Shown: in pieces, positions 1-28,740 of the stretch | Numbering within the stretch: the stretch's first letter is position 1 | How the letters are laid out: each line of letters starts with the position of its first letter | NCBI GenBank assembly: GCA_963716735.1 | Contig: OY970321.1 | Span: forward strand, 2,210,021 to 2,274,020 | Direction of reading: 5' to 3' | Source of the DNA: an uncultured Solirubrobacterales bacterium | GTDB taxonomy: Bacteria; Actinomycetota; Thermoleophilia; Solirubrobacterales; 70-9 | Length of the DNA stretch: 64,000 nt | Notes under the pieces: model-generated | What the model was told of the DNA's origin: nothing | The model's database searches: none | What the model saw: the letters and a program-made list of their open reading frames with translations, nothing else | Made by a program: the position numbers and the translations under genes

Positions 1-288
1 GGCAACCGCGTCCCCCTCGAATGCCTCCAGCCCGGCACGGACGGCGAAGCCGAAGCCGTTTTCGTAGGGCGAGGGCAGGCAGCGCACTTGCGGATGCTCG
101 GCGGCGAAGGCTTCGACGACCGCCGCCGTGTTGTCGGCGCTGGAGTCGTCGACGACGATCACCTCGTGCTCGATCTGCTCCGCGTCCAGGGTCGAGACGA
201 TCTCGCCGAGCGTCTCGACGACCGTGCCGTCCTCGTTGTAGGCGGGGATCACCACCGAGAGCTTCAGCGGCGTGGTCGCGGACTCCAT
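1..288 (-). CDS. Glycosyltransferase family 2, Dpm1-like polyprenol-phosphate sugar synthase type (first 96 codons only; rest lies left of window)
   Basis: Own translation of minus strand from ATG 288-286: [31 protein letters not shown]...HEVIVVDDSSADNT...SPYENGFGFAVRAGL. VVIPAYNE and VDDxSxD motifs are typical of GT2. The ATG shares one base with the TGA of the upstream SDR gene (TGATG). Absent from the ORF track because it is truncated. Confidence 0.8.
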   Translation of the reverse strand, partial: MESATTPLKLSVVIPAYNEDGTVVETLGEIVSTLDAEQIEHEVIVVDDSSADNTAAVVEAFAAEHPQVRCLPSPYENGFGFAVRAGLEAFEGDAVA

Positions 289-1370
289 CAGGCCGCCTTC
301 TCGAAGCCGAGAGCCTCGGCGACGGCGGGCTCGTGGGCGACGGTCCACGCGAGCAGGTCGGCGAGCACGTCGCGGGCGCTGCGACGTGGTCGCCACGAGG
401 TGCGGGCGAAGAGCCGCGAGCAGTCCGAGAGGTAGATCGGCACGTCGCCGGGGCGGGTCTCGGGGTCGGCGCCGATCTCGATCTCGTTACCGGTCAGCTC
501 GCGGCAGAGTGCGGTCGTCTCCAGCAGCGAGAGGCTGCACTCGCGCCCGCCGCCGACGTTGGCAACCGAGCCGCTCCAGCCCTCCGGATCGCCCAGCTGC
601 TCGTCGACCAGGTCGACCAGGTCGTCGATGTGGAGCAGGTCGCGGACCTGCTTGCCGGCGCCGCCGAAGCCGATGTAGGAAAGCGACTTGCCGAAGTGGT
701 GGCTGAGCAGCCACCAGGAGAAGACGCCCTGATCGACCTTGCCCATCTGCCAGGGCCCGGCGATCACCCCGCAGCGGTTGACGACGGCGCGCAGGCCGAA
801 GGCGTCGGCGTACTCCTCGATCAGCAGCTCGGCCGAGAGCTTGGTGGCGCCGTAGAGGGTGCGGGCGCCGGGCAGCGGGAACTCCTCCGAGATGCCCAGC
901 GGGCCGGCGCCTGGGACGGGCTGCTCGGCGGCTAGCTCGAAGCGGGTCTCGCCCTCCTCCAACGCCAGCTCGAGCTGGGGGGCGACCGGGTAGACGCGGC
1001 TGGTCGAGAGGAAGACGACGAAGGCGTCCTCTTCGCGGGCGCGCTCGAGGCAGTTGAAGGCGCCGACGAGATTCGTCTGCACCGAGTAGGAGGTGTCGGC
1101 GAAGCCGGCCAGGACCGAGGGCTCGGCCGAGCACTCGACCATCGCGTCGAAGGAGCCGGCGGCGGCAAGGTCGGTCTGCTCGCGGACATCGCCGTGGACG
1201 AACTCGATCCCGGCATCGCGCAGGCGGGCCAGGTTCAGCTCCGAGCCGCGGCGCATCAGGTTGTCGAGCGCGACGACTTCCCAGTCCGGGTGGCGCGCTG
1301 CCAACGAGACGCCGAGGTTGGCTCCCACGAATCCGGCCCCGCCGGTGATCAGCACCCTCATCTGGCGCAT
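288..1370 (-). CDS. NAD-dependent epimerase/dehydratase (extended SDR, CDP-paratose/tyvelose 2-epimerase-like)
   Basis: ORF 288-1370. Rossmann motif [16 protein letters not shown], catalytic YGATK (YxxxK), [13 protein letters not shown]. The true start is probably ATG 1361 (MRVLITGG) rather than 1370. Confidence 0.85.
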
Positions 1371-1404: not shown

Positions 1405-2478
1405 ATGCCGACCGCGATAGTCACTGGCTCGGGGGGCCTGATCGGCTCAGAGTCCGTCCGCCGTTTCATCGAGGCCGGTTGGGACATCGTCGGGATCGAG
1501 AACGACATGCGTGCTCGCTTCTTCGGCGAGGAGGCCTCGACCGCGCACGTGACCGAGGGACTGCGCGAGGGCTATGCCGAGTTCCGCTCGCTCGACCTCG
1601 ACATCCGCGACGCCGAGGGCATCAATCGCGCCTTCGCCGATCTGGGGGGCAAGCTCGATGCCGTCATCCACACCGCCGCCCAGCCTTCGCACGACTGGGC
1701 GGCCCGGGAGCCGCAGACCGACTTCGGCGTCAACGCGCTCGGCACGCTCAACCTGCTCGAGGCGGCGCGCGAGCACGCCCCGGACGTGCCCTTCATCTTC
1801 TGCTCGACCAACAAGGTCTACGGCGACACGCCCAACCGCCTGCCGCTGGAAGAGCTCGAGAAGCGGCTCGAACTGCCCGAGTCCCACCCCTTCCACAAGG
1901 GCATCGACACCTCGATGTCGATCGACCGTTCGACCCACTCGCTCTTCGGCGTCTCCAAGGCGGCGGCCGACCTGCTCGTGCAGGAGTACGGCCGCTACTT
2001 CGACATGCCGACCGTCTGCTTCCGCGGCGGCTGCCTGACCGGCCCCCAGCACGCCGGCGCCCAGCTGCACGGCTTCCTCGCCTACCTGATGAAGTGCACG
2101 GTCACCGGCACCCCCTACACCGTCTTCGGCTACGGCGGCAAGCAGGTCCGCGACAACATCCACAGCGCCGACCTGGTCGCCTGCTTCCAGTCCTTCCAGC
2201 GCGCCCCCCGCGCCGGCGCCGTCTACAACATGGGTGGCGGGCGCCGCAGCAACTGCTCGATGCTCGAGGCGATCGACGTCTGCGAGCGGATCAGCGACCG
2301 CAAGCTGCAGTGGGAGCTGAGCGACGAGAATCGCATCGGCGACCACCGCTGGTGGATCTCCGACGTTTCAGACTTCGCCGCCGACTACCCCGACTGGCAG
2401 CCGCGCTACGGCATCGACGAGATCCTCCAGGAGATGTACGAGCAGAACGTCGAGCGCTGGATGGCGACCGCGGGCTGA
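1405..2478 (+). CDS. NAD-dependent epimerase/dehydratase-like SDR (second, divergent paralog; catalytic Tyr position is Phe)
   Basis: In-frame ATG at 1405 ([16 protein letters not shown]). The upstream part of ORF 1093-2478 is antisense to the neighbouring gene. TGSGGLIG Rossmann motif and [13 protein letters not shown] are present. The YxxxK position reads FGVSK (codons 1945-1959). Confidence 0.85.
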
Positions 2479-2480
2479 AG

Positions 2481-4148
2481 CTAGCCGGCTTCGCGACCGA
2501 GGCCGCAGACCGTCGCCGGGCCGCCTTCGAGCTGCATCTTCCAGGGGACGGTGGAGAGGTCGCGGGGGATCGGCAGCGCCAGTGCTTCGCCGGCGCCGAC
2601 GCCCGTCTGGAAGTCGACCGGGAACTGCCTCCCCGTCGCGAACCGCCTCATCCTGATGTCGGTCACCGGTTTCGCGCCGGCGGCGATCGCGACACCGCCG
2701 GGCGGGACCTCGAACACGCGGGAGCCGGCGACGGCGAAGCACCCGTCGCTCGGTACCGCCGAGCGGGGGATCGGTTCGACCGCGATCCGCAGGGCGTTGA
2801 GCAGCACCTTGTCGGCGGCGAAGCGTGCGGGCTCCGGACTGCTCTGCAGCTCTGGGACGGTGAAGGCAGGAGAACCAAATGCGTCCACCGCGGAGAAATA
2901 GGAGCCGGCGTCGATGTGGTCGAAATTCGTATCGGCGAATTCCTCGTCGAGGTAGAAGCCCGGTTCGACCGTGTTCCTGGCGATCTCCAGTGCAGTCAGG
3001 TTCGCTTCGATGATCTGGCTGGTCCTCCGGTAGAAGTCATAGGACTGCTGGATGAGGAGTCCATTGCCGGCGAGCGAGACGGCGACGGCGATCAGCGCTG
3101 GAGGCAATAGGCGCCGGTCGAGCTTCAGGCCACTCAGCATTCCGGCGGCGACGAGCAAGACCATCGCCGCGCCGGGGTACTGGTAGCGGCTCGCCCACGG
3201 CACCCGGCCCGGCTTGACCGCGATCCCGCCGAAGACCCAGAACGCGATCGCGATCGCGATGACGACCCAGAGTGAGCGCGGGATGCGTTCGAGTTTGTAG
3301 AGGCGCCATGCCGCGAGCGCCCCGAGGCCGACGGCAAGCGGGCGCCCCCAGTCGAGGCCCGGCGGCGAGGGCAGGCCTTCGCCCATGGTCGCCAGGCCGG
3401 CCAGCGCTCCGCTCGCGGTGGCGAATGAGTCGAGCGCGAATATGGGCGCGGTAGCGATGTTGTGCAGTGTCACCGAGCTTTGGCCGCTGTTCCCCCAGCC
3501 GAGCCACCAGATCCCGTAGAGGACGACCGGCACCGCGACGACGAAGGCGCGCCGCCGCCAATCGCGGTCGGTCCGGCGCAGGACCACGTCCACGATGGCG
3601 CCGACGGCGAAGGCGAGCCAGAGGCTGGAGAAGAGCATCGCGCCGACCAGCCAGGCGCAGGCGAGGCGGTCGCCGACGCTGTCTCGCCGGTCGAGGGCCA
3701 CGAGCATGCCGAGGCCACAGGCCATCGAGCCGAGAAAGGTGATCGAGGCGAACCAGAAGAGGTCTTCGAAGGCTGCGCCGAGGAAGAGGATGGGCAGCGT
3801 CATCAGCAGGGCGCCCCAGCCGCCGATCCGGCGCCTGATCCAGACGAAGAGGAACCAGGCGCCGAGCAGGAGCATGGCGGTCGAGGCGATGCGGAAGGGC
3901 ACCAACGATCCCATGCCGAAGCCGGACAGCAAGAGCTTCCAGATCACGACCGCGCCGCCGACAAGGTGCTCGTTGGCCGGCGTCAGGAAGGCGTCGGCGT
4001 TGAAGTCGCGCCGGTAGAGGATGTAGGTCCAGTCGTCGAGGATGAAGGTCAGCCTCGAGCCGAGGACGACGATCACGACCCCGGCCACGAGCATCGCCGC
4101 CGCGAGCAGCAGCGACGCTGGGTTCTTCAGTCGGATTGCCCCGCCCAC
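2481..4148 (-). CDS. Polytopic membrane protein, possible GT-C-type (lipid-linked-sugar-dependent) glycosyltransferase
   Basis: 555-aa ORF with many hydrophobic segments in the N-terminal ~370 aa and a soluble C-terminal domain. An FILDDWTY motif follows the first TM, and an ALDRR motif comes later; both recur in the 26973-28727 protein. The start is GTG 4148; an alternative is ATG 4094 (MLVAGVV). Confidence 0.7.
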   Translation of the reverse strand: MGGAIRLKNPASLLLAAAMLVAGVVIVVLGSRLTFILDDWTYILYRRDFNADAFLTPANEHLVGGAVVIWKLLLSGFGMGSLVPFRIASTAMLLLGAWFLFVWIRRRIGGWGALLMTLPILFLGAAFEDLFWFASITFLGSMACGLGMLVALDRRDSVGDRLACAWLVGAMLFSSLWLAFAVGAIVDVVLRRTDRDWRRRAFVVAVPVVLYGIWWLGWGNSGQSSVTLHNIATAPIFALDSFATASGALAGLATMGEGLPSPPGLDWGRPLAVGLGALAAWRLYKLERIPRSLWVVIAIAIAFWVFGGIAVKPGRVPWASRYQYPGAAMVLLVAAGMLSGLKLDRRLLPPALIAVAVSLAGNGLLIQQSYDFYRRTSQIIEANLTALEIARNTVEPGFYLDEEFADTNFDHIDAGSYFSAVDAFGSPAFTVPELQSSPEPARFAADKVLLNALRIAVEPIPRSAVPSDGCFAVAGSRVFEVPPGGVAIAAGAKPVTDIRMRRFATGRQFPVDFQTGVGAGEALALPIPRDLSTVPWKMQLEGGPATVCGLGREAG

Positions 4149-4170
4149 GCCGGTAACCTATCTGCCCCTC

Positions 4171-5400
4171 TTGACGCTCCCCGCCCCATCCCCAGTCGCG
4201 ATCGAGGCCAGCGGCGTCGAGAAGACCTTTCGCATCCCCACCCAGCGGGTCGACTCGTTGAAGGAGCGGTTGACCACCTTCTCCGGCGGGGACTACCGTG
4301 AGCTGCGCGCCCTGCGAGACGTTTCCTTCGAGGTCGAGCGGGGGGAGTTCTTCGGCATCGTCGGCCGCAACGGCTCGGGCAAGAGCACCCTGCTGAAGAT
4401 CCTCGCCAGCATCTACGCGGCGGACGCCGGACGGGTGCGGATGGCCGGCCGCCTCGCCCCCTTTATCGAGCTTGGCGTCGGCTTCAACAACGAGCTGACC
4501 GCGCGCGAGAACGTCGAGCTGAACGGGGTGATGATGGGCCTCACGCGGCGCGACGCGCGCAGCCGCCTCGGCGCGGTGCTGGAGTTCGCCGAGCTGGAGG
4601 AGTTCGTCGACCTCAAACTGAAGAACTACTCCTCGGGGATGCTGGTCCGCCTCGCCTTCTCGGTGATGATCCAGTCCGACGCCGAGATCCTCCTGATCGA
4701 CGAGGTGCTGGCGGTCGGCGATGCCTCCTTCCAGCAGAAGTGCGCCGACGTCTTCTATGAGATCCGCGACTCCGATCGGACCGTCGTCTTCGTCACCCAT
4801 GACATGAGCGCGGTCGAGCAGTACTGCCACCGGGCGATGCTGCTTCACGATGGCGCTGTGCGGGCTATCGGCGCGGCCGACGAGGTGGCGCGCAGCTACC
4901 TTCGCCTCAACTTCGAGCAGGCTCCGAGCGACGGCGATGCAGATATGGGCGGGGTCGCCGACATCACGCTCAGCGACGTCTGGCTCGAGGACGGTGAGGG
5001 CCAGCGCATCACCAATGTCGAAAAGGGCTCTGAGCTGCGCTTCGGCGCGACGTTCGAAGCCCATCGCAAGGTCGAGGGCCCGAGCTTCGGGTTTGCTTTC
5101 ACCAACGCCGACGGGGTCGAGGTGACTGGGTTTGGCCTCGGCCTCTCCGGCGACGTACCCGACCTGCTCGAGCCGGGACAGCGGGTGAGCCTGAGCGGTG
5201 AGATCGAGAACCGGCTGGCACCCGGCCGTTACGTGACCAAGTGCTGGGTCCACCGGAACCACAACTTTGCCGACCTCGTCCTGCACTCGCCCCACGTGCT
5301 CGACTTCGTCGTCTACGGCAAAGACGGCGCGGGTGTGGTTGCTCTCAACCACGAGATCGTGGCGACGGTTGAGACCAAGGCGCCAGTGGAGGGATCGTGA
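4171..5400 (+). CDS. wzt: Polysaccharide/O-antigen ABC exporter ATP-binding protein with Wzt-type C-terminal extension
   Basis: Walker A GRNGSGKST, signature YSSGM, Walker B LLIDEVLAVGD, H-loop THD. About 150 extra C-terminal residues follow (ADITLSDVWLEDGEGQRI...FGFAFTNADGVEVTG...VLDFVVYG), beta-rich like the Wzt carbohydrate-binding domain. The start is uncertain. TTG 4171 is the first in-frame start not overlapping the divergent gene, and ATG 4042 would overlap it by 107 nt. Confidence 0.85.
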   Translation: MTLPAPSPVAIEASGVEKTFRIPTQRVDSLKERLTTFSGGDYRELRALRDVSFEVERGEFFGIVGRNGSGKSTLLKILASIYAADAGRVRMAGRLAPFIELGVGFNNELTARENVELNGVMMGLTRRDARSRLGAVLEFAELEEFVDLKLKNYSSGMLVRLAFSVMIQSDAEILLIDEVLAVGDASFQQKCADVFYEIRDSDRTVVFVTHDMSAVEQYCHRAMLLHDGAVRAIGAADEVARSYLRLNFEQAPSDGDADMGGVADITLSDVWLEDGEGQRITNVEKGSELRFGATFEAHRKVEGPSFGFAFTNADGVEVTGFGLGLSGDVPDLLEPGQRVSLSGEIENRLAPGRYVTKCWVHRNHNFADLVLHSPHVLDFVVYGKDGAGVVALNHEIVATVETKAPVEGS

Positions 5401-6248
5401 ACGCCGAGCCCTCGACCATGGAGTTGCGCGAGGTCACCGGCCCGTCCGCAATCGGCGGCGGTCGCCACCGCTTCTTCGAGTTGCTCTGGCTGATGTCGGT
5501 GACCGAGTTCAAGAAAACCTTCTTCGGCACCGTGCTCGGCTACGTCTGGTCGCTGATGCGGCCGCTGCTGCTCTTCGCCGTGCTGCTCCTCGTCTTCACC
5601 CAGGTCTTCAAACTCGGCAGTGAAGTGCCGCATTACGAAGTCCTGCTGCTCTTCAACATCGTCCTCTTCGGCGTCTTCCTGGAGGGGACCAGCGGTGCCG
5701 TTGGAGCGGTACTGGGGCAGGAGGGGATCGTTCGCAAGACCCAGTTCCCGCGCCTCGTCATCCCCCTCGCGGTCGTCCTGACGGCGGTCTTCACCCTCGG
5801 GCTCAACATGATCGTCGTCTTCGTCTTCATGCTCGCCTTTGGCATCGCGCCGATGTGGACCTGGCTTTTGTTCCTCCCGCTCATTCTCGTGCCGCTCCTG
5901 GTCTTCATCTGCGCCCTTGCGATGCTGCTCTCTGCGCTAAACGTCCGCTTCCGCGACGTGGCGATCATCTGGACGGTGGTGGCGACGGCGCTCAACTATG
6001 CGACCCCGATCCTCTATCCGCTGGAAATAATCCCCGAATCGCTGCGGCATGCCCTCATGGCAAATCCGCTTGCCCCCCTCTTCCAGCAGGCGCACATCTG
6101 GATGATCAATCCGCATGCGGAAGGTGTGCGGGCCGCCGCCGGTGGCCCCCTGCCGCTGATCGCCGCGGCCGTCATCTACGTCGTCGTTTGCGTTGCCGGC
6201 GTCTGGGTCTTCAACCGCGAGGCGCCGCGCATCGCCGAGCAGCTCTGA
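5397..6248 (+). CDS. wzm: ABC-2 type polysaccharide exporter permease
   Basis: 283 aa with six hydrophobic segments and an ABC-2 permease-like sequence (FRDVAIIWTVVATALNYATPILYP). The GTG start overlaps the wzt stop (GTGA at 5397-5400). Confidence 0.85.
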   Translation: MNAEPSTMELREVTGPSAIGGGRHRFFELLWLMSVTEFKKTFFGTVLGYVWSLMRPLLLFAVLLLVFTQVFKLGSEVPHYEVLLLFNIVLFGVFLEGTSGAVGAVLGQEGIVRKTQFPRLVIPLAVVLTAVFTLGLNMIVVFVFMLAFGIAPMWTWLLFLPLILVPLLVFICALAMLLSALNVRFRDVAIIWTVVATALNYATPILYPLEIIPESLRHALMANPLAPLFQQAHIWMINPHAEGVRAAAGGPLPLIAAAVIYVVVCVAGVWVFNREAPRIAEQL

Positions 6249-6297
6249 GCAGTGGGCGCTACTTTCCCTCTCGGGGCCGTTTCAGGGTGATGCGTTG

Positions 6298-7425
6298 ATG
6301 AGAAAACTGACAGGGGCGTTTGTCGTGGTCGTGGCGCTGCTCGGGCTGCCGGCGGCCGCCGCCGCGGTTGGCCCGGCGCCGTCCGGTTTTGCCGTCGGAA
6401 TCTCGCCCCAGACGCCAGCCGGCAAAGAGGACTACGCGCTGATGGCGGAGGCGGGTCTGACGAGCCTGCGGCTGCCGCTTGGCTGGGGCAGCGTCGAGCC
6501 CCAGAGCCCTTACTTCGCCGCACCCGACTGGTCTGACTTCGACCGCTCCGTCGCGCTTGCCGCCGAATCCGGAATGCGCGTCTTCCCGTTCGTCTGGGGG
6601 AGCCCGTCGTGGGTCGCCGGCCAGGGGCTGGTGGAACCCGTTCGCAATGCCTGGGAGGGCCGCGCCTGGGCCTCCTTCCTGCGCCAGGCAGTACGGCGCT
6701 ACGGCCCCTATGGGTCCTTCTGGGGGGAAAACCCGGAGCTGCCATTCCTGCCGATCCGTGACTGGGAGATCTGGAACGAGGAGAACATCGTCACCTTCTC
6801 CGCGCGTCCCGACCCGTCGCGCTACGCGCGTCTGTTGCGGATCGCCGGCCGCGCCATCCACCGCGCCGATCCTGGCGCGAAAGCGATCCTCGGCGGCCTT
6901 TTCGGCCGCCCTCTGCAGGTGCCGCCAAACATTCCCTCCGGCGCCTTCCTCAACGGCGTCTACCGGGCCGGCCACATAAGGCCCTTCTTCGACGGCGTGG
7001 CGCTGCACCCCTACGTCGCCGATGCGAGCGCGATGGAACCTCAGATTCGCAACCTGCGCCGCATCATGCGGCGCCATCGCGACGGTGCCACGCCGATCTA
7101 CGTCACCGAGCTGGGCTGGGGCTCGGACAGCTTCCAGACCCGTTGGGAGCGCGGCATGTGGGGCCAGGCTCGCGAGCTCGACCAGGCCTTCTCGATGCTC
7201 ACCGACCACAGCCGCTCCTGGCGCATCGCCGGTGTCTGGTGGTTCTCCTGGGCCGACGCGGGCCGTCTTTGCCAGTTCTGCGATTCGGCCGGCCTGCTCA
7301 CCGGCGACCGCGAAGCCAAGCCCGCCTGGTACCGCTTCACCGAATGGACCGGCGGCGACCCCGAAATCGTCCCGCGCGTCAGCTTCGGCGAGGAACCGGT
7401 GGACGTCGTCGACTCAGCCGGCTGA
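6298..7425 (+). CDS. Secreted clan GH-A glycoside hydrolase-like protein
   Basis: ATG 6298 gives the signal peptide MRKLTGAFVVVVALLGLPAAAAAV. WEIWNEEN (acid/base Glu) and YVTELGWGS (nucleophile Glu) motifs are present. It is a paralog of 37669-38799. Confidence 0.75.
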   Translation: MRKLTGAFVVVVALLGLPAAAAAVGPAPSGFAVGISPQTPAGKEDYALMAEAGLTSLRLPLGWGSVEPQSPYFAAPDWSDFDRSVALAAESGMRVFPFVWGSPSWVAGQGLVEPVRNAWEGRAWASFLRQAVRRYGPYGSFWGENPELPFLPIRDWEIWNEENIVTFSARPDPSRYARLLRIAGRAIHRADPGAKAILGGLFGRPLQVPPNIPSGAFLNGVYRAGHIRPFFDGVALHPYVADASAMEPQIRNLRRIMRRHRDGATPIYVTELGWGSDSFQTRWERGMWGQARELDQAFSMLTDHSRSWRIAGVWWFSWADAGRLCQFCDSAGLLTGDREAKPAWYRFTEWTGGDPEIVPRVSFGEEPVDVVDSAG

Positions 7426-8301
7426 GCGGAAGAGATTGACCGAGCCGATGCGGCGCATCGCGTACTGGTCGTAGGGCAGGTCGCCGCGCCAGCGGTTGTG
7501 CGCCTCGGCGGAGACGAAGTAAGTCTCGGGGTCGCTTTCCATCGCCTCGATCTGGCCCGCCAGGTCCCGCTCGGAGAGGCCGAGGGCGGCGACGATCGCG
7601 TCGAGTTTCTCGCGGTGCTCCTCGGCGCCCCAGCCGGCGAGGACGTGATCGACGGCGTGGATCGAGCAGCCGTTGCGCTTCTGTACCAGCTCGTGGCCGG
7701 CTTCGACCACCCTGGCGACGTGCTCGAGTGGCACATGCTCGAGCACCGAGATCGAGAAGACCGCGCCGAAGTCGTCGCCGACGTCCTCGTTCGGTGGGAA
7801 GAGCTCGCGGACGAAATGCACATCGGGGTAGGCGCTCTGGAAGCGCTTGAACTCGCGCGGGCCGTTGCCGCCGCCCATGTAGTCGTCGACCACGGTCACG
7901 TCGTAACCGAGGCGCGAGAGCATCCCCGCTACCAGCGGCTCGCCGGCACCGATCTCGAGGATGCGGTCGCCGCGCTCGACGTTGCCGAGGATCGCCTTGA
8001 TCGCCCAGCAGCGCTGCAGGTCCTTCATGTCGAAGCTCGCTCCGGCGAGGCCGGTGAGGTGGTCGGCGCTGTCGGCGAAATCGCGCACGGTGCCATAGGA
8101 GATCGCTGCTAGCGGGAAGTCGCCGACGTAGCGCTCGGCGATCGGCCACAGCGCGCTGTCGGCGATCGTCCAGGCCGAGGCGTTGGCGCCGGGCGTCGCC
8201 CCCGAGGGGGCGTAGAGCGCGGCCTTGCCCGCCAGTTTGCGCAGCAGCGGCGAACGCGCCGCGGCGGCGCGCAGGCGTTGGGCCTGTGCCGTCGCGCTCA
8301 C
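7414..8301 (-). CDS. Class I SAM-dependent methyltransferase
   Basis: RILEIGAGEPLVAGMLSRLGYDVTVVDD ... FGAVFSISVLEHV (motifs I-III). I prefer GTG 8301, which forms a GTGA overlap with the upstream GT4 stop. The ORF track start is 8337. Confidence 0.75.
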   Translation of the reverse strand: MSATAQAQRLRAAAARSPLLRKLAGKAALYAPSGATPGANASAWTIADSALWPIAERYVGDFPLAAISYGTVRDFADSADHLTGLAGASFDMKDLQRCWAIKAILGNVERGDRILEIGAGEPLVAGMLSRLGYDVTVVDDYMGGGNGPREFKRFQSAYPDVHFVRELFPPNEDVGDDFGAVFSISVLEHVPLEHVARVVEAGHELVQKRNGCSIHAVDHVLAGWGAEEHREKLDAIVAALGLSERDLAGQIEAMESDPETYFVSAEAHNRWRGDLPYDQYAMRRIGSVNLFRSAG

Positions 8302-9482
8302 GCTGAGGAACCCACTGGCCGGCCGCTGGCCGAGCACTCGCGCAGGAACGCACCCAGCCCTTCGGCGTTCGCCCGCCAGCTCAGCTGCTCGGCGGCGAAG
8401 CGGCGCGCGCCGGCGCCGAGGCGCCCGGCCAGCTCGCGGTCGGCAAGCAGCTGTTCGATGTTGACGACGATCTCCATTGCGTTTCCCTGCTCCAGTAGGA
8501 GGGCACTCTCTCCGTGCGTGAGGTCATTGCCGATGTTGCAGTGCGGCAAGATAACCGGCCGCCCCATCGCCAGGAACTCCGGCAGCTTGGAGGGCAGGCG
8601 GTAGCGGTTGAAGTCATCGGGTGGCCCGGGCTGGACGTAGGCGTCGGCCATCGCCAGATAGGCGGGGATCTCCCGCCAGGCGATCGGGCCGAGCTCGATC
8701 ACGCCGTCGCCGAGGGCGCGGAAGGCGCGCGGGTCGGGCCCGCCGAATTCGGAATGGCCGAGGCGGACGAGGCGCACCCTGTGCCCGCGCCGCTGCAGCA
8801 GCTTGACGGCGAGGTAGAGGCTCAGCATCTCGTGCTGGTTGGCGTAGTGGATCGTGCCGTGGTAGACGAGGACGAAGTCCTCGGGCCCGAGGCCGAGTCG
8901 CTCACGCGGGTGTGGCTCGAGGTCGGGGTGGAAGCGCTCGAGGTCGATGCCGGGGCGAGCCAGCGCGTGCGGTCGGCCGGCACGGTTGAACTCGTTGAGC
9001 GCCTCCGTGATCACCGTGATCCCGGCAGCGCCGTCGAGGAACTCGCGGTGGTGGGTGGGGTGGATCAGGTCGGGTGGCGCGAGGCTGTCCTGCTGGCGTA
9101 GCGGCAGTCGCTGCAGTTCGGCCAGCGAGCGCCCCGTCGCCGATTCGATCAGCAGCTCCTCGTTGTCCTCGAGGTGGATGGCGTAAGGGGCGCCGAGTTG
9201 CCGCACCGCCTCCATCGTCATCCGTCGCACCGGCTCGCGCGGCGTCCAGCCGAGGACGATCGTCTCCCGCGGGTCGCGGCGCATCTCGCCGAGCTTGCGC
9301 TCGAGGTCGTCGTGGGAGATGCACTCGAAGCGTGGCTCGCCGACCGCCGCCGCTCGCGCCGGGTCGCCGCGCCCGGCCACGGTCACCTCCCAGCCGAGGT
9401 CGGTCAGCTCGTTGCCGAAGTGGTAGGCCTGGATCCCGCTGTTGACGTCGAACGGGCCGAAGTAGACGACGAGGAGCCTCAT
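8298..9482 (-). CDS. Glycosyltransferase family 4 (GT-B fold)
   Basis: 394 aa, MRLLVVYFGPF... The C-terminal half carries RLPSKLPEFLAMGRPVILP (an EX7E-like region). ATGA overlap with the upstream gene at 9479-9482. Confidence 0.8.
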   Translation of the reverse strand: MRLLVVYFGPFDVNSGIQAYHFGNELTDLGWEVTVAGRGDPARAAAVGEPRFECISHDDLERKLGEMRRDPRETIVLGWTPREPVRRMTMEAVRQLGAPYAIHLEDNEELLIESATGRSLAELQRLPLRQQDSLAPPDLIHPTHHREFLDGAAGITVITEALNEFNRAGRPHALARPGIDLERFHPDLEPHPRERLGLGPEDFVLVYHGTIHYANQHEMLSLYLAVKLLQRRGHRVRLVRLGHSEFGGPDPRAFRALGDGVIELGPIAWREIPAYLAMADAYVQPGPPDDFNRYRLPSKLPEFLAMGRPVILPHCNIGNDLTHGESALLLEQGNAMEIVVNIEQLLADRELAGRLGAGARRFAAEQLSWRANAEGLGAFLRECSASGRPVGSSA

Positions 9483-14452: not shown

Positions 14453-15000
14453 TGCCGCGGCGGTTGGAGACCAAGCTCGACGGCGTCGTCCTGCTCGAGC
14501 CCGAGGTCCACGGCGACGATCGCGGCTTCATGGTCGAGACCTATAGGCGCGACACCTGGGCAGAGCTCGGTATCGACGTCGAGTTCGTCCAGCACAACCA
14601 TTCGCGCTCCTCAAGAGGAACGTTGCGTGGCCTTCATTTCCAGACCGAGCCGGGCCAGGCGAAGCTGGTCCGCTGCCCGCGCGGCAAGATCTTCGACGTC
14701 GCCGTCGACCTGCGCCGTGCCTCGCCCACCTACGGTCAGTGGGAAGGACACGAGCTCGACGACGAGACCCACCGCCAGCTCTTCGTCCCCGTCGGCTTCG
14801 GCCACGGCTTCGCCGTCCTCAGCGACGTCGCCGACGTCACCTACCTCTGCTCGAGCACCTACGACCCGGCGACCGAGTCCGGCATCGCCTGGGACGACCC
14901 CGACGTCGGAGTCGAGTGGCCGGTCGACGACCCCCTGCTGAGCGAGCGCGACAAGCAGGCCCCGGCGCTTAGCGAAGTAGCCGAGTCACTGCTGTTCTAG
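14452..15000 (+). CDS. rmlC: dTDP-4-dehydrorhamnose 3,5-epimerase
   Basis: ATG 14452 (TGATG junction with rmlB). DDRGFMVETYR, RGLHFQ, QAKLVRCPRGKIFDVAVDLR and VPVGFGHGF are present. Confidence 0.92.
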   Translation: MPRRLETKLDGVVLLEPEVHGDDRGFMVETYRRDTWAELGIDVEFVQHNHSRSSRGTLRGLHFQTEPGQAKLVRCPRGKIFDVAVDLRRASPTYGQWEGHELDDETHRQLFVPVGFGHGFAVLSDVADVTYLCSSTYDPATESGIAWDDPDVGVEWPVDDPLLSERDKQAPALSEVAESLLF

Positions 15001-17303: not shown

Positions 17304-17305
17304 CG

Positions 17306-18040
17306 TCAGGCGCATCCGTCGCGGACTCTCTTCGGCGATGCCATATAGAGAGTCGCCCGGCCGTTCCAGTAGCTGGCGACATTGCGCACATCGAACCCGG
17401 CGGCCTCCAAAAGCGCGCTGACATAGTCGCGGGTGAAAAACCACCACCAGGCCTCGTAGGGGTTCCAACCCTCGCGCTGCAGATCCCACTCCTCGCCGAC
17501 CGCGTGGTTCACGCCGTACGCAAACGGCGCCCCGTTTTCGCGCAGCCACTCACCGAGAATGACACGCTGACTGTCGGTCATCGCCGGAACGAGCAGCGCC
17601 GTGCCCGGTTCGACGCTGATGGCTCCGGCGGAGGTGGCGACGGTCTCGGGCATCGTCGCCGTGCCCAGTATCAGGGTCCCCCGAACTAGTGCGCACAGGT
17701 TGCGCAGCGTGCGCAACGGTTCGGGACAGTGGTAGAGGACACCGCTGCAATGGACGGCGTCGAAGGAGCCGACTTTGTCTACGAGCGCGTGATCGTCGAC
17801 GCTGCCGTGAATGCAGCGTACGCCCGCCACACCGTGTTCCTCCAGCCGAGACTCGAAGGCTCCCCAGAGATCTTCGGGGCCGCCCTCGGGCGCGATGTCG
17901 ATCATCGTCAGGTCGGTGGCACCGGCAGCAGCAGCAACGGTGACTTGCTCATTCACCACCCCCCAAAGACCGCCCACCTCGGCAAAGGAGCTACCAGAAG
18001 CAACCGCCGCGATCCAGCTCTCCCTGAGGCCGTCTCCCAC
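17306..18040 (-). CDS. Putative class I methyltransferase-fold protein
   Basis: 244 aa. SFAEVGGLWGVVNE...DLTMIDI...FDAVHCSGVLYHCPEPLRTL resembles MTase motifs I, II and post-III. It is the first gene after an AT-rich spacer. Confidence 0.55.
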   Translation of the reverse strand: MGDGLRESWIAAVASGSSFAEVGGLWGVVNEQVTVAAAAGATDLTMIDIAPEGGPEDLWGAFESRLEEHGVAGVRCIHGSVDDHALVDKVGSFDAVHCSGVLYHCPEPLRTLRNLCALVRGTLILGTATMPETVATSAGAISVEPGTALLVPAMTDSQRVILGEWLRENGAPFAYGVNHAVGEEWDLQREGWNPYEAWWWFFTRDYVSALLEAAGFDVRNVASYWNGRATLYMASPKRVRDGCA

Positions 18041-24022: not shown

Positions 24023-24055
24023 TACACCCCGACCCTACGCGTTCGGACTCTGTCC

Positions 24056-25228
24056 CTATGGGGCGGCGGTGACCGCGGCGGCCTCATGGGCGTGCCTCGA
24101 AACCGACTCGATCACCCGATCGATGCGCTCTTCGCCCATGCCCGACCACAGTGGCAATCTCAGCAGGCGAGCACTCGCCGAGGGCGCGACCTCGATCGGC
24201 CCGGCGGCGCGCCCGAATCGACGACCGGCCGGTGACTCATGCAGAGGGCTGTAATGAAACACGCTCTTGATGCCGTCCCTGTCCAGGCGCTCGATCAGCT
24301 CGTCCCGAGCGGAAGCGCTTGGCATCAGCAGGTGATAGAGATGACCACTGTGCTCACATCCATCGGGAACGAAAGGACGCCGCAGAGCACCCTCCTCCTC
24401 CAGATCCGCGAAGGCATCGTGGTAGCGGTCCCAGGTCCCCCGTCGCTCCGCGGTTATCTCATCTAGTCGCTCGAGTTGTGCCCATAGAAACGCCGCACCG
24501 ACCTCGCTCATGAGGTATGAGGACCCCAGGTCCTGCCAGGTGTACTTGTCTACCTCTCCTCGGAAGAACCGGGATCTGTCGGTGCCCTTCTCCTGAACGA
24601 CCTCCGCCCGGTCGATCAAGGTCGGATCGTTTATCGCCAGCGCTCCACCCTCACCGCAGTGAACGTTCTTGGTCTCATGAAAACTGAACGTCGACAGGTG
24701 CCCGATCGATCCGAGCGGGCGCTCGCGCCAAGTTGCCGGAAGCGAATGAGCCGCATCCTCGATCAGGACGAGATCGTGCTGGTCGACGAGAGACGTGATG
24801 CGGCCCATGTCGCAGGCGATCCCGCCGTAGTGGACGACCACGATGGCCCGGGTGCGTGGGGTGATGGCGGCCGCTGCTGCGTCGGGATCGATGTTGAGGG
24901 TCTCTGGCTCGGAATCGACGAAGACGGGTACCGCTCCCCTAAGCGCAAAAGCGTTGGCGGTGGAGACGAAAGTGAAGGACGGCATGACGACCTCGTCCCC
25001 GGGTCCGAGTCCGGCGAGGATGCCCGTCATCTCCAGGGCTGCGGTGCACGAGGGAGTGATCAGGGCACGATCCGCACCCAGGCGGCGCTCGAGCGAAGCG
25101 CAGCAGCGCACGGCGAACTCTCCGTTCCCAGAGAGCTTTCCGCTCAATAGAGCCTCGTCGATGTAGGCGTGCTCATTGCCGGCGAGGCGAGGCCGGTTGA
25201 ATGGAATCGCCTCGTTCATCGGAGGCAT
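24056..25228 (-). CDS. wecE: dTDP-4-amino-4,6-dideoxyhexose (Fuc4N/Qui4N) aminotransferase, DegT/WecE family
   Basis: Collinear with my recollection of E. coli WecE: IPFNRP...TPSCTAALEM...MPSFTFVSTANAF...FSFHETKN (PLP Lys)...EKGTDRSRFFRGEVDKYTWQDLGSSYLMSE...LLRLPLW. The start is taken at ATG 25228 (MPPMNEAIPFN); ATG 25252 is an alternative. Confidence 0.88.
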   Translation of the reverse strand: MPPMNEAIPFNRPRLAGNEHAYIDEALLSGKLSGNGEFAVRCCASLERRLGADRALITPSCTAALEMTGILAGLGPGDEVVMPSFTFVSTANAFALRGAVPVFVDSEPETLNIDPDAAAAAITPRTRAIVVVHYGGIACDMGRITSLVDQHDLVLIEDAAHSLPATWRERPLGSIGHLSTFSFHETKNVHCGEGGALAINDPTLIDRAEVVQEKGTDRSRFFRGEVDKYTWQDLGSSYLMSEVGAAFLWAQLERLDEITAERRGTWDRYHDAFADLEEEGALRRPFVPDGCEHSGHLYHLLMPSASARDELIERLDRDGIKSVFHYSPLHESPAGRRFGRAAGPIEVAPSASARLLRLPLWSGMGEERIDRVIESVSRHAHEAAAVTAAP

Positions 25229-25250
25229 CGTATTGCCGCTGCGCTCTAGC

Positions 25251-26255
25251 ATGTCGCCGATGGGTCCCTACGACGCACGCCGGGCGGCATCCGGCGCCGA
25301 AGCAGACCCTGCACTGAGCATCGTGATTCCTCTTTACCGGGACGAGGCAGCCGTTGCGGAGATCTTTCGTCGCTGTCAGCCGGTGCTCGATCAGGTCGGC
25401 GGCGAGCTGATTCTTGTCGACGACGGCGGTCTCGATGAGACGTCCCCCCGCGCTCGGGCGTTGGCGGAGACGTATCCGCACCCAGTGGTCGTCGTGCGGC
25501 TTGCGCGGAACTTCGGTCAGCACCCCGCGGTCTTCGCCGGACTCGCACACGCCTCCGGCAGGTGCGTCGTAACTCTGGACAGCGACCTGCAGTACCCGCC
25601 CGAGGAGATCATGACTTTGCTTGCCGAGTTGTCGGATGCGTACCCGGTGGTTTCGGGATACAGACAGGATCGACAGGATCCGTTGCCGCGACGGCTGGTG
25701 ACGCGCCTGCTGACGGGTTGGCTGAACAGGCGCACCGGGACCGATCTCAACGACTTCGGATCGATGTTCAGGGTCTACGACCGGGCGACCGTCGACCTGA
25801 TGCTCGAATTCACCGAGAGGCATCGGTACGTCCCGGCGATAGTCGCCTGGCTCGGTGTTCCCATAAAAGAGGTGCCGATCGAGCACCATGCGCGAGGAGA
25901 CCAGGGCTCTCGCTATCGGCTCTCGACTCTGCTCGATCTGCTCCTCGATCTGATCACCGGATACTCGGTGTTCCCCCTCCGCCTACTCACCGGCGTCGGC
26001 CTTGTCGCGTCTCTTGCCGGGTTTCTCGGTACCGTCTTCTTCCTCGTCTACCGCTTGTTTGAGGGCAGCGGCGTGTCCGGAACCGTCTCGGCTTTTGCCC
26101 TCGTCTTTGCGTTGCTCGGCGTTCAGTTGTTGATTACGGCCCTGATAGGGGAGTACGTCGGCCGGGTTTACACCGAGGCGAAGGGGCGCCCCTACTATCT
26201 GGTCCGCGATGTGACTCGGAGTGACAGTCACGTCACTGCGCCAACCCCCTCGTGA
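25251..26255 (+). CDS. GT2 polyprenol-phosphate glycosyltransferase (ArnC/GtrB/CsbB-like, two C-terminal TM helices)
   Basis: LSIVIPLYRDEAAV...LILVDDGGLDET...LARNFGQHPAVFAGL...VTLDSDLQYPPE. C-terminus: FPLRLLTGVGLVASLAGFLGTVFFLVY and AFALVFALLGVQLLITALIGEY. Start ATG 25251, or 25260. Confidence 0.82.
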   Translation: MSPMGPYDARRAASGAEADPALSIVIPLYRDEAAVAEIFRRCQPVLDQVGGELILVDDGGLDETSPRARALAETYPHPVVVVRLARNFGQHPAVFAGLAHASGRCVVTLDSDLQYPPEEIMTLLAELSDAYPVVSGYRQDRQDPLPRRLVTRLLTGWLNRRTGTDLNDFGSMFRVYDRATVDLMLEFTERHRYVPAIVAWLGVPIKEVPIEHHARGDQGSRYRLSTLLDLLLDLITGYSVFPLRLLTGVGLVASLAGFLGTVFFLVYRLFEGSGVSGTVSAFALVFALLGVQLLITALIGEYVGRVYTEAKGRPYYLVRDVTRSDSHVTAPTPS

Positions 26256-26983
26256 CCGAGAGCGCTCTCGACGAAGAGATTGAGCTGCTTCGCTGGGACA
26301 GCGAGCATTTCAGGTTTCCCATTGCACGGGTATGTGACCCCACGGGCCCTGCGCGGATGAGTACAGCGGTTGACGTCGCCGAAAGCCGGGGCGTTCGTTG
26401 TCTCACTGCGCTGGTGAAAGCGGATCGAGTTGATGTCATTACCACCGCTGAGGATCTCGGGTTCCGCTGCTATGACGTCCGGACTGACCTCGACCGGCAA
26501 ATCGATGGTTCGCATGACATGTCGGCTGACCAGGGCCTTCGGCTTGCCACCGAATCTGATCTTCCTCACCTAGAGCCCATCGCGCGGGAGCGGTTCTCCG
26601 CTACTCGATTTGTCAGTGATTCGCACTTCCCGAGTGAGCTTGCAAGGAACCTCTATGTGGAGTGGCTTAGGCGAGGACATCGGGATGCGGGCCGCCGGTT
26701 GATCACGGCGAGCGGGCTGGACGGATTCGTCGTCTGCCGCCTCGATGGCGAAAGTGGGGTCGGTACCATTGAGTTGATCGCCGTGTCAGCGGAAGCAGAG
26801 GGTACGGGGCTCGCCGCGCGACTACTGCATGGAGCCGAGTCGCTCTTTATGGATGCGGGACTCGCGCGCGCTCATGTGGTGACCCAGGGACGTAATCTGT
26901 CGGCACAGAGGCTGTACCAGCGCCACGGCTATCGCACTGGAGACGTAAGCCTGTGGCTTCACCGGTGGGCGCCTAGCCGCTGA
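26252..26983 (+). CDS. wecD: dTDP-4-amino-4,6-dideoxyhexose N-acetyltransferase (WecD-like two-domain GNAT)
   Basis: Architecture and motifs parallel my recollection of E. coli WecD. LRWDSEHFRFPIARV matches LTWENAFFG. RFVSDSHFPSELARNLYVEWLRRG matches RFRAPWY...YAQWIENA. VVTQGRNLSAQRLYQRHGYRTGDVSLWLHRW matches VATQMGNTAALKRYIQSGA...YWLYR. The GTG start overlaps the upstream stop (GTGA). Confidence 0.7.
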   Translation: MTESALDEEIELLRWDSEHFRFPIARVCDPTGPARMSTAVDVAESRGVRCLTALVKADRVDVITTAEDLGFRCYDVRTDLDRQIDGSHDMSADQGLRLATESDLPHLEPIARERFSATRFVSDSHFPSELARNLYVEWLRRGHRDAGRRLITASGLDGFVVCRLDGESGVGTIELIAVSAEAEGTGLAARLLHGAESLFMDAGLARAHVVTQGRNLSAQRLYQRHGYRTGDVSLWLHRWAPSR

Positions 26984-28727
26984 TCGGTTCGGCCCAGTAG
27001 GGGACGGGTCCCCATCGGCTGAGCCGGGTTTCGCACTGCCGCTTCGAGGTGACATGCAAAGCGACCCCCCGAGCGGGGCTGACGAAGTAGACGGGGTGTC
27101 GTCCTTCTCCATACGGAGCGACGAGTTCTCCCAGCTGCGTGATTCCACGGGTGCCGCAGGCGACGTCTTCGTCGAACGGCGACGCGAAGTCAGGCCTTAT
27201 CGGGCTTTCGTATTCGATCACTCCGCGAAAGTCCCAGGTTTGGGCGAAGACCGGAATCCAGCCTTGCTCCCATCTAGGAGTATCGAAGCCCATGACCCGG
27301 GCGGTCGTGGGTACGTTGCGTAGGCCCTTGCGAAGTCCAGGAAGAGTCCTCTTCTGGATGCTCCATGAAGCAAGCCAGGCGTCCTGGTGTTCGGTGCTTA
27401 CGGCGAGCTGATGCTTTGCCGCGGCAGCGAATACGAGGAGCACGGCGAGGGGTGCAGCCGGAGCCCAGGGAGACCACCGTCGAACCAGCTCATACAGAAG
27501 GCCCAAGACCGCGACGAACGCGAGTACATAGGGAATCGTGCCCGGCAGATTGAGGCGGTTATTGGTGCTGAAGTACTGCAGCAGGTAGGTGTCATTGGCC
27601 GTGAGGAAGATCAGGGAGCATGCGATCGCGGCGACGGCTGCCGCCAGGAGCACAACCCACCACCGGATCAGCCGATGTCTCATGCTTGGAACGGCGAGGG
27701 TCACCGTCGCCGCTGCGAGGACGATGCATCCCAGGGCGATCAGCCCAAAGCGCGGCGCATATAAGTAGCGCCAGCTATCCCATGCACCTTCGACCAGGAC
27801 ACCGGCTCGCGTCACGAGCTGGCCAGTCGTACGTTCGGTCATGAAGGCCGGATCGTTGGTTGGTGCGACCACCAAACGGTAGAAGACGAACGCCATGACC
27901 AAGCCCAGGTCGGCGAGCCAGCGAATGAATGCTTTTCTGCTGCGGAAGATGGCGAGGTACACGGCCCCCTGGACTGCGATGAGCGGGACCGCAATCTCAT
28001 AGGTGGCCATGGCGATCAGGGCGAGCGCGGCCGAAAGACCGTGCAGGGCCCAACTCCGCCGGCCCTCCGGTCGATCCAGGGCCCGGATGGCGATCATCAG
28101 GCTCGCCATCTGAAGCAGGATCACGTACAGGCCGATGGTTGCGATCGGCCACAGTCGACTCGAGTCCGCGCCCGGAAAGAGGATGATCGCGCCGCCGATT
28201 GCCAGGCACCAAAGTCTGGCCAAGCCGGCCCGGCGAGCAACCGCATATGCGATGGCGACGATCGCGAAGAGCAGCACGATCGGAAGAACGTGATACGCCC
28301 ATTTGTGTCCTCCGAAAGCAGACCACTGCCCCGCCTGGTAGAGGCAGGCAAGCTTACGGCCGCCCGGGATCGTTTCCATGCACGTGTTCATCCCCGCCCA
28401 TAGCGACCCCTGTGACTTCTGTTCCGCATACACGGTCCAGTCATCGAGGAACCAGCCTGCCTCGGTCGCATAAGGCAAGTACAGTGCCAGCGTCAGCAAG
28501 AGCAAGCCGAGTAAGCAGGCAAAGTCGGCCAACGAGTACCGTGGCCACCCGCCGTTGCTGGACTCCGTATCCGGGGCCAATGACCTGGTCGTATCGATTT
28601 TTCGAGGAGGCGCTTTGGGGCTGGCTGCCATTGGCCGCATTACGCTACTTGTTGGCTCGGGTCGAGCGATCGCAAGCAGCGCCGGGGCTAGGACTCTGCA
28701 CCAGGCGGCTGCAAGTCGCCGATTCAT
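26973..28727 (-). CDS. Polytopic membrane protein, possible GT-C-type glycosyltransferase (paralog of 2481-4148)
   Basis: 584-aa ORF with more than 10 hydrophobic segments. WFLDDWTVY follows the first TM and IRALDRPEGRR comes later. The C-terminal ~130 aa are soluble. Start uncertain (ATG 28727, 28640 or 28631). Confidence 0.7.
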   Translation of the reverse strand: MNRRLAAAWCRVLAPALLAIARPEPTSSVMRPMAASPKAPPRKIDTTRSLAPDTESSNGGWPRYSLADFACLLGLLLLTLALYLPYATEAGWFLDDWTVYAEQKSQGSLWAGMNTCMETIPGGRKLACLYQAGQWSAFGGHKWAYHVLPIVLLFAIVAIAYAVARRAGLARLWCLAIGGAIILFPGADSSRLWPIATIGLYVILLQMASLMIAIRALDRPEGRRSWALHGLSAALALIAMATYEIAVPLIAVQGAVYLAIFRSRKAFIRWLADLGLVMAFVFYRLVVAPTNDPAFMTERTTGQLVTRAGVLVEGAWDSWRYLYAPRFGLIALGCIVLAAATVTLAVPSMRHRLIRWWVVLLAAAVAAIACSLIFLTANDTYLLQYFSTNNRLNLPGTIPYVLAFVAVLGLLYELVRRWSPWAPAAPLAVLLVFAAAAKHQLAVSTEHQDAWLASWSIQKRTLPGLRKGLRNVPTTARVMGFDTPRWEQGWIPVFAQTWDFRGVIEYESPIRPDFASPFDEDVACGTRGITQLGELVAPYGEGRHPVYFVSPARGVALHVTSKRQCETRLSRWGPVPYWAEPISG

Positions 28728-28740
28728 ATGATGGCTCGCA

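Follow-up and report, generated by a model that had tools for sequence, protein, structure and literature searches.

The window analysed here is a stretch of 64,000 nucleotides from an uncultured Solirubrobacterales bacterium (assembly GCA_963716735.1, contig OY970321.1, positions 2,210,021 to 2,274,020, G+C 67.7%), whose relatives are uncultured Solirubrobacterales (Actinomycetota, Thermoleophilia), mostly metagenome-assembled genomes from soil. Two of its open reading frames (ORFs), P0001 and P0002, encode polytopic membrane proteins, and we consider it quite probable that both are membrane glycosyltransferases (GT) of the GT-C fold, forming two distant branches of one unnamed family, which would use polyprenol-monophosphate sugars to modify an exported surface polymer. 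Within this explanation we infer the type of donor, the acceptor, the roles of individual residues and the activity itself. An initial annotation of the stretch had listed both ORFs and four motif strings, all of which are present in the sequence. The two proteins and their principal features are as follows.

2481..4148, (-) strand: P0001, 555 aa, predicted GT-C-fold membrane glycosyltransferase of an unnamed D-[DE]-W family, with 11 predicted transmembrane (TM) helices and an extracytoplasmic C-terminal domain.
4029..4046, (-) strand: FILDDW of P0001 (F35-I-L-D38-D39-W40), predicted to lie just behind TM1, in extracytoplasmic loop 1; its acidic pair is the proposed catalytic one.
3762..3767, (-) strand: E128-D129 of P0001, in outside loop 2, which is short (G-x-A-W-E-D-L-L-W); candidate for the second acidic residue.
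3687..3698, (-) strand: ALDR of P0001 (A151-L-D-R154), predicted where TM4 ends on the cytoplasmic side; not a motif of the active site.
3183..3188, (-) strand: R321-Y322 of P0001, invariant, in the outside loop before TM10; candidate lipid-phosphate/acceptor-binding pair, by analogy with MtPMT R441/Y444.
2484..2981, (-) strand: C-terminal soluble domain of P0001 (residues ~390-555), beta-rich, with Cys470/Cys548 invariant; predicted outside.
26973..28727, (-) strand: P0002, 584 aa as an ORF, predicted GT-C-fold membrane protein and remote homologue of P0001.
28437..28445, (-) strand: D95-D96-W97 of P0002, just before the first helix of outside loop 1.
28149..28178, (-) strand: F184-P-G-A-D188-S-S-R191-L-W of P0002, in outside loop 2; F184, P185, D188, R191 and L192 invariant.
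28071..28082, (-) strand: ALDR of P0002 (A216-L-D-R219), in a predicted cytoplasmic loop; its D varies within the family.
27555..27560, (-) strand: N390-R391 of P0002, invariant, in an outside loop; R391 is aligned to P0001 R321.

The true start of P0002 is probably M30 (28640) or M33 (28631), because its homologues begin about 30 residues later. The C-terminal domain of P0002 contains the string Q-T-W-D-F-R-G-V (residues 496-503, window 27219-27242), in which W498 is invariant; WDFRG faintly resembles the oligosaccharyltransferase motif WWDYG, and its D is replaced by G or N in some homologues. The C-terminal domain of P0001 (residues 390-555) also carries an R-x-x-A-D-K-V-L motif.

BLASTP found no significant similarity between P0001 and P0002, and no Pfam-A or NCBIfam model scored above threshold in either protein or in their relatives (45 of the P0001 family, hereafter family 1, and 23 of the P0002 family, family 2). 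P0001 had 441 word-indexed relatives, every one named 'hypothetical protein', a name shared by every database homologue of the two proteins whose name was read, and P0002 had only 25 relatives. A profile search with the P0001 family against 1.84 billion representatives at 50% identity recovered 4,258 clusters at E <= 1e-3 and 1,316 at E <= 1e-30, and the hidden Markov model (HMM) of the broad family-1 alignment, run against PDB sequences, gave only a chance match to IFT74. Within the phylum the distribution of family 1 is patchy: a search of 301 genomes found it in 14, chiefly members of the family and order to which the window belongs.

The relationship between the two proteins emerged from profile-profile alignment. 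With hhalign, a shallow family-1 alignment (A1) matched the P0002 family weakly (18% probability); the alignment of 45 diverse family-1 sequences (A3, 29-56% identity to P0001) matched the P0002-family alignment (A2) with 97.2% probability (E 3.8e-11, 369 columns), placing D-D-W on D-D-W, ALDR on ALDR and S-R-Y on N-N-R, and the probability fell to 0.7% in the reversed-alignment control. Because BLASTP was not significant yet the profile-profile alignment was strong, we read P0001 and P0002, on the strength of their profiles, as genuine remote homologues and not recent paralogues. The initial description of the pair as paralogous was right about homology, with the motifs in register, and the relation is only a distant one.

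Conservation within each family also indicates that the sharing of the motifs exceeds chance. L-D-D-W is invariant among 30 family-1 sequences, and in the 45 sequences of A3 the counts are F35 41/45, D38 44/45 (one E), D or E at position 39 41/45, W40 42/45, H61 43/45 and R154 41/45, with W214, R321 and Y322 each present in 45/45; position 128 is E in 35/45, Q in 6 and D in 3. The family-1 signature is F-x-x-D-[DE]-W, and Cys470 and Cys548 of the C-terminal domain are invariant. In family 2 (23 sequences) D95, D96 and W97 are at least 90% conserved, and F184, P185, D188, R191, L192, N390 and R391 are invariant. D-D-W is kept among homologues, as the initial annotation had anticipated. The ALDR motif, also named there as shared, is present in both proteins and aligned in register; in family 2 it reads AL-x-R, with a D that is not conserved.

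A sequence-level link of D-D-W to characterized enzymes was found with the protein O-mannosyltransferases (PMTs; PF02366, CAZy GT39, for example M. tuberculosis MtPMT). As reference we used 24 actinobacterial PF02366 PMTs taken from genomes, with ORFs selected by phmmer and two loci from unpublished genomes left out of the alignment; these 24 PMTs carry an F-D-E-x-Y-Y motif after TM1. When A3 was aligned to them with hhalign (82.5% probability, E 1e-5, 208 columns; reversed control 2.6%), D38 and D39 fell on the D-E of this motif, Y42 fell on its second Y, and the ALDR region fell on the D-r-x-r (acidic-Arg) element of the PMTs. Most GT-C enzymes have a DE or DxD motif upstream of the first helix of external loop 1 (EL1), and mutagenesis of MtPMT identified D74 (EL1), D176 (EL2) and R441 and Y444 (EL5) as essential (PMC12331936). 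The topological counterparts of these residues would be as follows.

MtPMT D74(-E75), EL1: D38/D39 in P0001 and D95/D96 in P0002.
MtPMT D176, EL2: E128/D129 in P0001 and D188 in P0002.
MtPMT R441/Y444, EL5: R321/Y322 in P0001 and R391 in P0002.

In the alignment of A3 with the PMTs, the loop-2 register relative to D176 is imprecise, about 5 positions off.

Topology was derived from the hydrophobic cores of the helices in the AlphaFold2 models, together with counts of lysine and arginine (K+R) over the family alignments, with TM6 of P0002 placed by homology to the helices of P0001. Both models contain 11 helices, and the topology model has 11 TM segments with the N-terminus inside and the C-terminus outside, as is characteristic of the GT-C superfamily (8-13 or more TM helices, N-terminus in the cytoplasm, loops and C-terminal domain outside). 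K+R per residue was 0.256 in inside versus 0.062 in outside loops for P0001 (A3), and 0.237 versus 0.055 for P0002 (A2), an approximately 4-fold positive-inside bias for this arrangement. In the P0002 model, DSSP placed D-D-W between helices H66-89 and H96-106. The models and the charge bias predict the D-D-W of both proteins to be extracytoplasmic, at the start of outside loop 1 and directly ahead of that loop's first helix, which is the outward orientation that the initial annotation had supposed. ALDR is predicted to be cytoplasmic, at the inner end of TM4 in P0001, and on this placement it would not be part of the outward-facing active site; we rejected it as a catalytic motif for that reason. 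The invariant Cys470/Cys548 pair fits an extracytoplasmic location of the P0001 C-terminal domain, which could be the acceptor-glycan-binding part.

The AlphaFold2 model of P0002 (mean predicted local distance difference test score, pLDDT, 79.8; predicted template modelling score, pTM, 0.79) was compared with the PDB by Foldseek, and the top 18 matches were all GT-C enzymes with a probability of 1.00, including PglB (best, E 4e-4), AftA, yeast and human STT3, ArnT (5f15, template modelling score, TM-score, 0.44 on target), ALG3 and AglB, with Pmt4 at rank 20 and DPY19 at rank 24. Transporter matches (MFS, CLC, SGLT and TMEM16 proteins) reached a probability of at most 0.25, with TM-scores of 0.1-0.17. 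The P0001 model (mean pLDDT 70.6, pTM 0.64; C-terminal domain about 90) had EmbC, EmbB, STT3, DPY19 and AglB as high-probability matches of its membrane part, and weak matches of its C-terminal domain to small beta-sandwich or carbohydrate-binding-module-like (CBM-like) domains. The predicted GT-C fold of P0001 is tied to that of P0002 through the 97% profile homology. Sub-threshold Pfam matches in family-1 members (DUF6057, YfhO, PMT_2, DUF6056, PTPS_related, GT87) offer a lead only, as does a language-model atlas in which the homologue P0015 lies among unnamed clusters with Glucos_trans_II, DUF6056 and PMT_2 as nearest, faint named neighbours. PF02366 matched neither P0001 nor P0002 nor any of the 45 and 23 relatives, and PMT_2 (PF13231) gave sub-threshold matches to 3 of the 45 family-1 members, at best with E 0.0023, and no match to family 2.

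These fold results bear directly on a reading in which the proteins are not GT-C at all, being transporters or another polytopic class whose fold matches are those of generic helical bundles. We find this reading hardly credible, the least likely of those considered, and largely refuted. It can appeal to the modest TM-scores of P0002 against GT-C structures (only 0.28-0.45), to the mediocre membrane part of the P0001 model (pLDDT 40-80), whose Foldseek E-values are weak (5e-3 to 0.1) and TM-scores low, and to the finding that none of the GT-C models in Pfam or NCBIfam reached threshold in either family. Against it, all high-probability Foldseek matches are GT-C enzymes while transporters stay at or below 0.25, the PMT profile alignment keeps the catalytic motif in register while the reversed controls fail, and the architecture, the motif position and the gene context all fit GT-C. 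A transporter assignment was rejected on these Foldseek results, and a WaaL/Wzy-type ligase was rejected with no such fold among the matches. The GT-C fold proposed at first annotation agrees with the matches of P0002 and, on a poorer model, with those of P0001 in the same direction. Taken with an outward, conserved D-D-W that aligns with the D-E of the PMTs, the proposal of a distinct GT-C-like family with a D-D-W signature is supported, and 'distinct family' is a fair label because no Pfam or NCBIfam model reaches threshold.

The gene context points to polysaccharide synthesis. Around P0001 the window contains the following genes.

1..291, (-) strand: 5' part of the gene for a Dpm1/AglJ/PpgS-like GT2 whose full length is 272 aa, with a P0001 paralogue directly behind it.
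288..1370, (-) strand: SDR (short-chain dehydrogenase/reductase) epimerase/dehydratase A, overlapping the GT2 start codon.
1405..2478, (+) strand: SDR epimerase/dehydratase B, convergent with P0001.
4198..6248, (+) strand: Wzt (with a Wzt_C domain) and Wzm of an ATP-binding cassette (ABC) exporter, transcribed away from P0001; syntenic in 24-31 of 35 related loci.

The GT2 at the window start, at first taken to be truncated, is full length in the genome and is only cut by the window edge. P0001 had also been placed downstream of it; the gene is indeed nearby, and SDR A and the convergent SDR B lie between, so P0001 is not transcriptionally downstream. Between the P0001 start (4148) and the likely start of Wzt (about 4198), only about 50 nt remain in which a divergent promoter could lie; if Wzt began at its longest ORF (from 4042), the two genes would overlap (window 4042-4198). 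Beyond the exporter, ORFs 6160-7425 (+) and 7414-8523 (-) have coding-like G+C at third codon positions and no Pfam match, and they are candidates for a function that the locus lacks, for instance a flippase.

Searching all 2.83 Mb of the genome with the family-1 HMM gave four copies within 10 kb, namely P0001 and three just upstream of the window. There, in the numbering of the upstream locus (L006, in which L006:3206-14311 corresponds to genome 2199206-2210311), a dense run of predicted GT-C-type genes precedes window position 1. It opens with GT87 (422 aa), a secreted glycoside-hydrolase-like (GH-like) protein and another Dpm1-like GT2, continues with a membrane protein of 643 aa (PMT_2 match below threshold, motif V-D-Y-D-D-E-G), and ends with the three paralogues of P0001 and the window-edge GT2. 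The three paralogues are the following.

L006:11801-13483, (-) strand: 56% identity to P0001, motif L-L-D-D-W-T-Y, starting 9 nt after the stop of the window-edge GT2.
L006:10096-11808, (-) strand: motif G-I-D-E-M-F-Y.
L006:8260-10086, (+) strand: motif V-N-D-D-A-F-Y.

For the two small GT2s the best NCBIfam matches were AglJ, dolichyl-P-hexose transferase and PpgS, and for the first of them also ArnC. We collected 35 related Solirubrobacterales loci with alignment A1 and scored features within 6 kb: a Dpm1-like GT2 was present in 31/35, often contiguous and on the same strand, Wzt in 31/35, and more than one family-1 gene in 28/35. A second recurring arrangement was a family gene followed by a GT2 and two further family genes, all contiguous and on the same strand. 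Elsewhere in the phylum, we compared 13 loci belonging to 11 further genomes, of which 8 loci have a polyprenol-P-sugar-type GT2 close to the family gene; in 4 of the 13 a same-strand GT2 was adjacent to the family gene or about 1.2 kb from it, one of these being an SDR-DegT-GT2-family-gene run. Two homologues, P0188 and P0198, are natural fusions of the family-1 membrane domain, with Wzy_C (O-antigen ligase/polymerase-like) as N-terminal partner in one and a GT2 in the other; the GT2 part of P0198 is not detectably similar to the locus GT2, and because of this the fusion lends weak support.

P0002 lies in a different gene set, in which the following genes accompany it.

24056..25252, (-) strand: WecE-type sugar 4-aminotransferase (540 bits, above the NCBIfam cut-off).
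25248..26255, (+) strand: ArnC/PgfS-like GT2 ending in a membrane part (E 1e-68 to the ArnC model, short of its cut-off; PgfS second-best NCBIfam match); candidate polyprenol-P-sugar synthase serving P0002.
26252..26983, (+) strand: WecD-like GNAT acyltransferase.

The ArnC-like GT2 that had been described as next to P0002 is present, 0.7 kb away with the GNAT gene between them. Nearby genes also encode a large GT4-GT2 protein, a pyruvyltransferase and an initiating transferase of the Bac_transf type. The unit of P0002 homologue, GNAT, GT2 and DegT is kept, with different flanking genes, in contigs carrying P0002 homologues of 40-55% identity, and the family-2 HMM found only P0002 in the genome. 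G+C is 61-65% at window 24000-29000 (61-64% in this block taken by itself) and 15000-18000, and 66-72% over much of the remaining window; because P0002 and its partners lie in such a low-GC block, base composition suggests that P0002 with its WecE, GT2 and GNAT partners may be a separately acquired module.

We propose a mechanism in three steps. A cytoplasmic GT2 would put a monosaccharide on polyprenol phosphate, this enzyme being Dpm1/AglJ/PpgS-like for the P0001 paralogue group and ArnC/PgfS-like for P0002, where the WecE aminotransferase and the WecD-like acetyltransferase would supply the sugar. A flippase would then turn the lipid-linked sugar across the membrane, and the GT-C enzyme would move the sugar to the acceptor at the outer membrane face, the likely acceptor being the glycan exported by the neighbouring Wzm/Wzt ABC transporter. 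In the active site, the D-[DE] pair opening outside loop 1 may act as base or acceptor-activating centre, and the acidic residue of outside loop 2 with the invariant Arg(-Tyr) of a later outside loop may handle the lipid phosphate.

The same fold and context could be taken to indicate an oligosaccharyltransferase-like (OST-like) or ligase-like GT-C enzyme, which would transfer a polyprenol-diphosphate-linked glycan, the Wzm/Wzt product, en bloc to protein or lipid, as PglB and STT3 do. PglB is the best Foldseek match of P0002 and many of the top matches are STT3, W498-D-F-R-G faintly recalls WWDYG, and P0001 adjoins Wzt/Wzm. However, the monophosphate-donor enzymes ArnT, AftA, ALG3 and PMT score about equally in Foldseek, the sole sequence-profile link is to PMT, and the WWDxG motif of STT3, PglB and AglB (GT66) is absent from P0001, while the D of WDFRG in P0002 varies (G or N). 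Moreover, both families are linked to polyprenol-P-sugar-type GT2s, and four paralogues in a row are unusual for a ligase. We regard en bloc transfer as unlikely.

Apart from the weaknesses of the models given above, several results weigh against polyprenol-monophosphate-dependent GT-C enzymes. Family 2 alone (A2) aligned to the PMTs with only 11.6% probability. All GT2 matches to polyprenol-P-sugar synthases were below the equivalog cut-offs, P0001 is not in one operon with its nearest GT2, and the synteny counts are not independent because they come mostly from related genomes. Further, a search for a GtrA-type flippase found none in the locus, the genome's only GtrA-type gene being at 313899. 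That gene adjoins a PMT_2 gene (312529), and the two look like a separate three-component system.

The missing flippase and the many paralogues would suit a further possibility, that P0001 and P0002 have the GT-C fold without transferase activity and help the other GT-C enzymes of the locus as scaffolds, as chaperones, or by binding or flipping lipid-linked sugars. Sequences that are only 30-40% identical nevertheless show strong conservation of the acidic pair, of the acidic residue in loop 2 and of the Arg-Tyr, a pattern to be expected of active enzymes; we judge the inactive alternative very improbable. On balance, we favour polyprenol-monophosphate-dependent transferases for both proteins.

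The gene content goes beyond the two independent outside-the-membrane decoration steps that had been supposed initially, as the locus, including 14 kb upstream of the window, holds about seven GT-C-type genes and three polyprenol-P-sugar-type GT2s. A bolder and, in our view, doubtful extension is that the approximately seven GT-C-type genes (four D-[DE]-W paralogues, P0002, GT87 and the PMT_2-like gene) go beyond the addition of single side-chain sugars and, with the three GT2s around the Wzm/Wzt exporter, construct an entire branched glycan domain on the outer side, starting from a primer exported by the ABC transporter; if true, this would amount to an extracytoplasmic assembly line in Thermoleophilia in the style of mycobacterial arabinan/lipoarabinomannan (LAM).

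Solirubrobacterales are abundant, mostly uncultured soil actinobacteria, and to our knowledge the envelope chemistry of Thermoleophilia is essentially unknown. The locus suggests that the surface polymer of Solirubrobacterales is heavily modified outside the membrane via lipid-monophosphate sugars, and it points to an unusually GT-C-rich envelope biosynthesis in Thermoleophilia. The GT-C assignment gives a putative function to a large set of hypothetical proteins, in which each relative whose name or Pfam record was read is nameless and lacks a Pfam domain, and the seed alignment with the D-[DE]-W and R-Y signature could become a Pfam or CAZy family. The understanding of GT-C enzymes themselves is unchanged.

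Among known systems, PMTs share with the proteins described here the predicted arrangement of 11 TM segments with the N-terminus inside and the C-terminus outside, two adjacent acidic residues that open outside loop 1 behind TM1 (D38-D39 on D-E) and a cytoplasmic acidic-Arg element after TM4; the proteins also have candidate counterparts of the acidic residue in the second outside loop of PMTs and of the Arg/Tyr pair further on. They differ in that the families here have D-[DE]-W and no PF02366 match, whereas PMTs have D-E-x-Y-Y; P0001 carries, in place of PMT_4TMC, a beta-rich C-terminal domain of its own that includes a Cys pair; and the context here is a polysaccharide locus, whereas PMT is a single housekeeping gene. 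Of 121 genomes of the phylum, 47 had a PF02366 gene (a tally that includes three unpublished genomes, G001, G048 and G120, on which none of our conclusions depends), and none was found in this genome or in 8 other genomes sampled from its class.

The ArnT/ArnB/ArnC pathway of lipid A aminoarabinose (Ara4N; ArnT is GT83) resembles the P0002 module in combining an aminotransferase, an ArnC-like GT2 and a GT-C protein in one conserved unit, and the ArnT structure 5f15 is among the best fold matches of P0002 (TM-score 0.44). In contrast, PMT_2 was not detected in the P0002 family, there is no ArnA or ArnD, the sugar predicted for P0002 is a WecE/WecD-type 4-acetamido-4,6-dideoxyhexose and not Ara4N, and the acceptor would not be lipid A in this Gram-positive-type lineage.

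Three-component side-chain glycosylation, as in GtrA/GtrB/Gtr(type), GacI/GacL of the streptococcal group A carbohydrate, CsbB/YfhO and PgfS/PgfM, works by a GtrB-like GT2 that makes a polyprenol-P-sugar and a GT-C enzyme that decorates an ABC-exported polymer outside the membrane. The locus shares this pairing of GT2 and GT-C; PgfS is the second-best NCBIfam match of its ArnC-like GT2, and YfhO and Glucos_trans_II are faint neighbours. Unlike these systems, it has several GT-C paralogues and not one, no GtrA-type flippase and no sequence-family membership.

The mycobacterial Emb/Aft arabinofuranosyltransferases (GT53/85/89) differ in length (about 1,050 aa for Emb, about 555 aa here), have no sequence-level match to the families, and no genes of the decaprenyl-P-arabinose pathway were identified here. 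In common are the GT-C fold, predicted for the families (EmbC, EmbB and AftA are among the fold matches), a DD-type loop-1 motif, the grouping of several paralogous GT-C genes within a single cell-envelope locus, and a host among the actinobacteria. Compared with all of these, the proteins, as judged from their profiles and models, are a new, unnamed family inside the known GT-C superfamily that would follow a known extracytoplasmic-glycosylation logic (three-component or Arn-like), and not a new kind of system.

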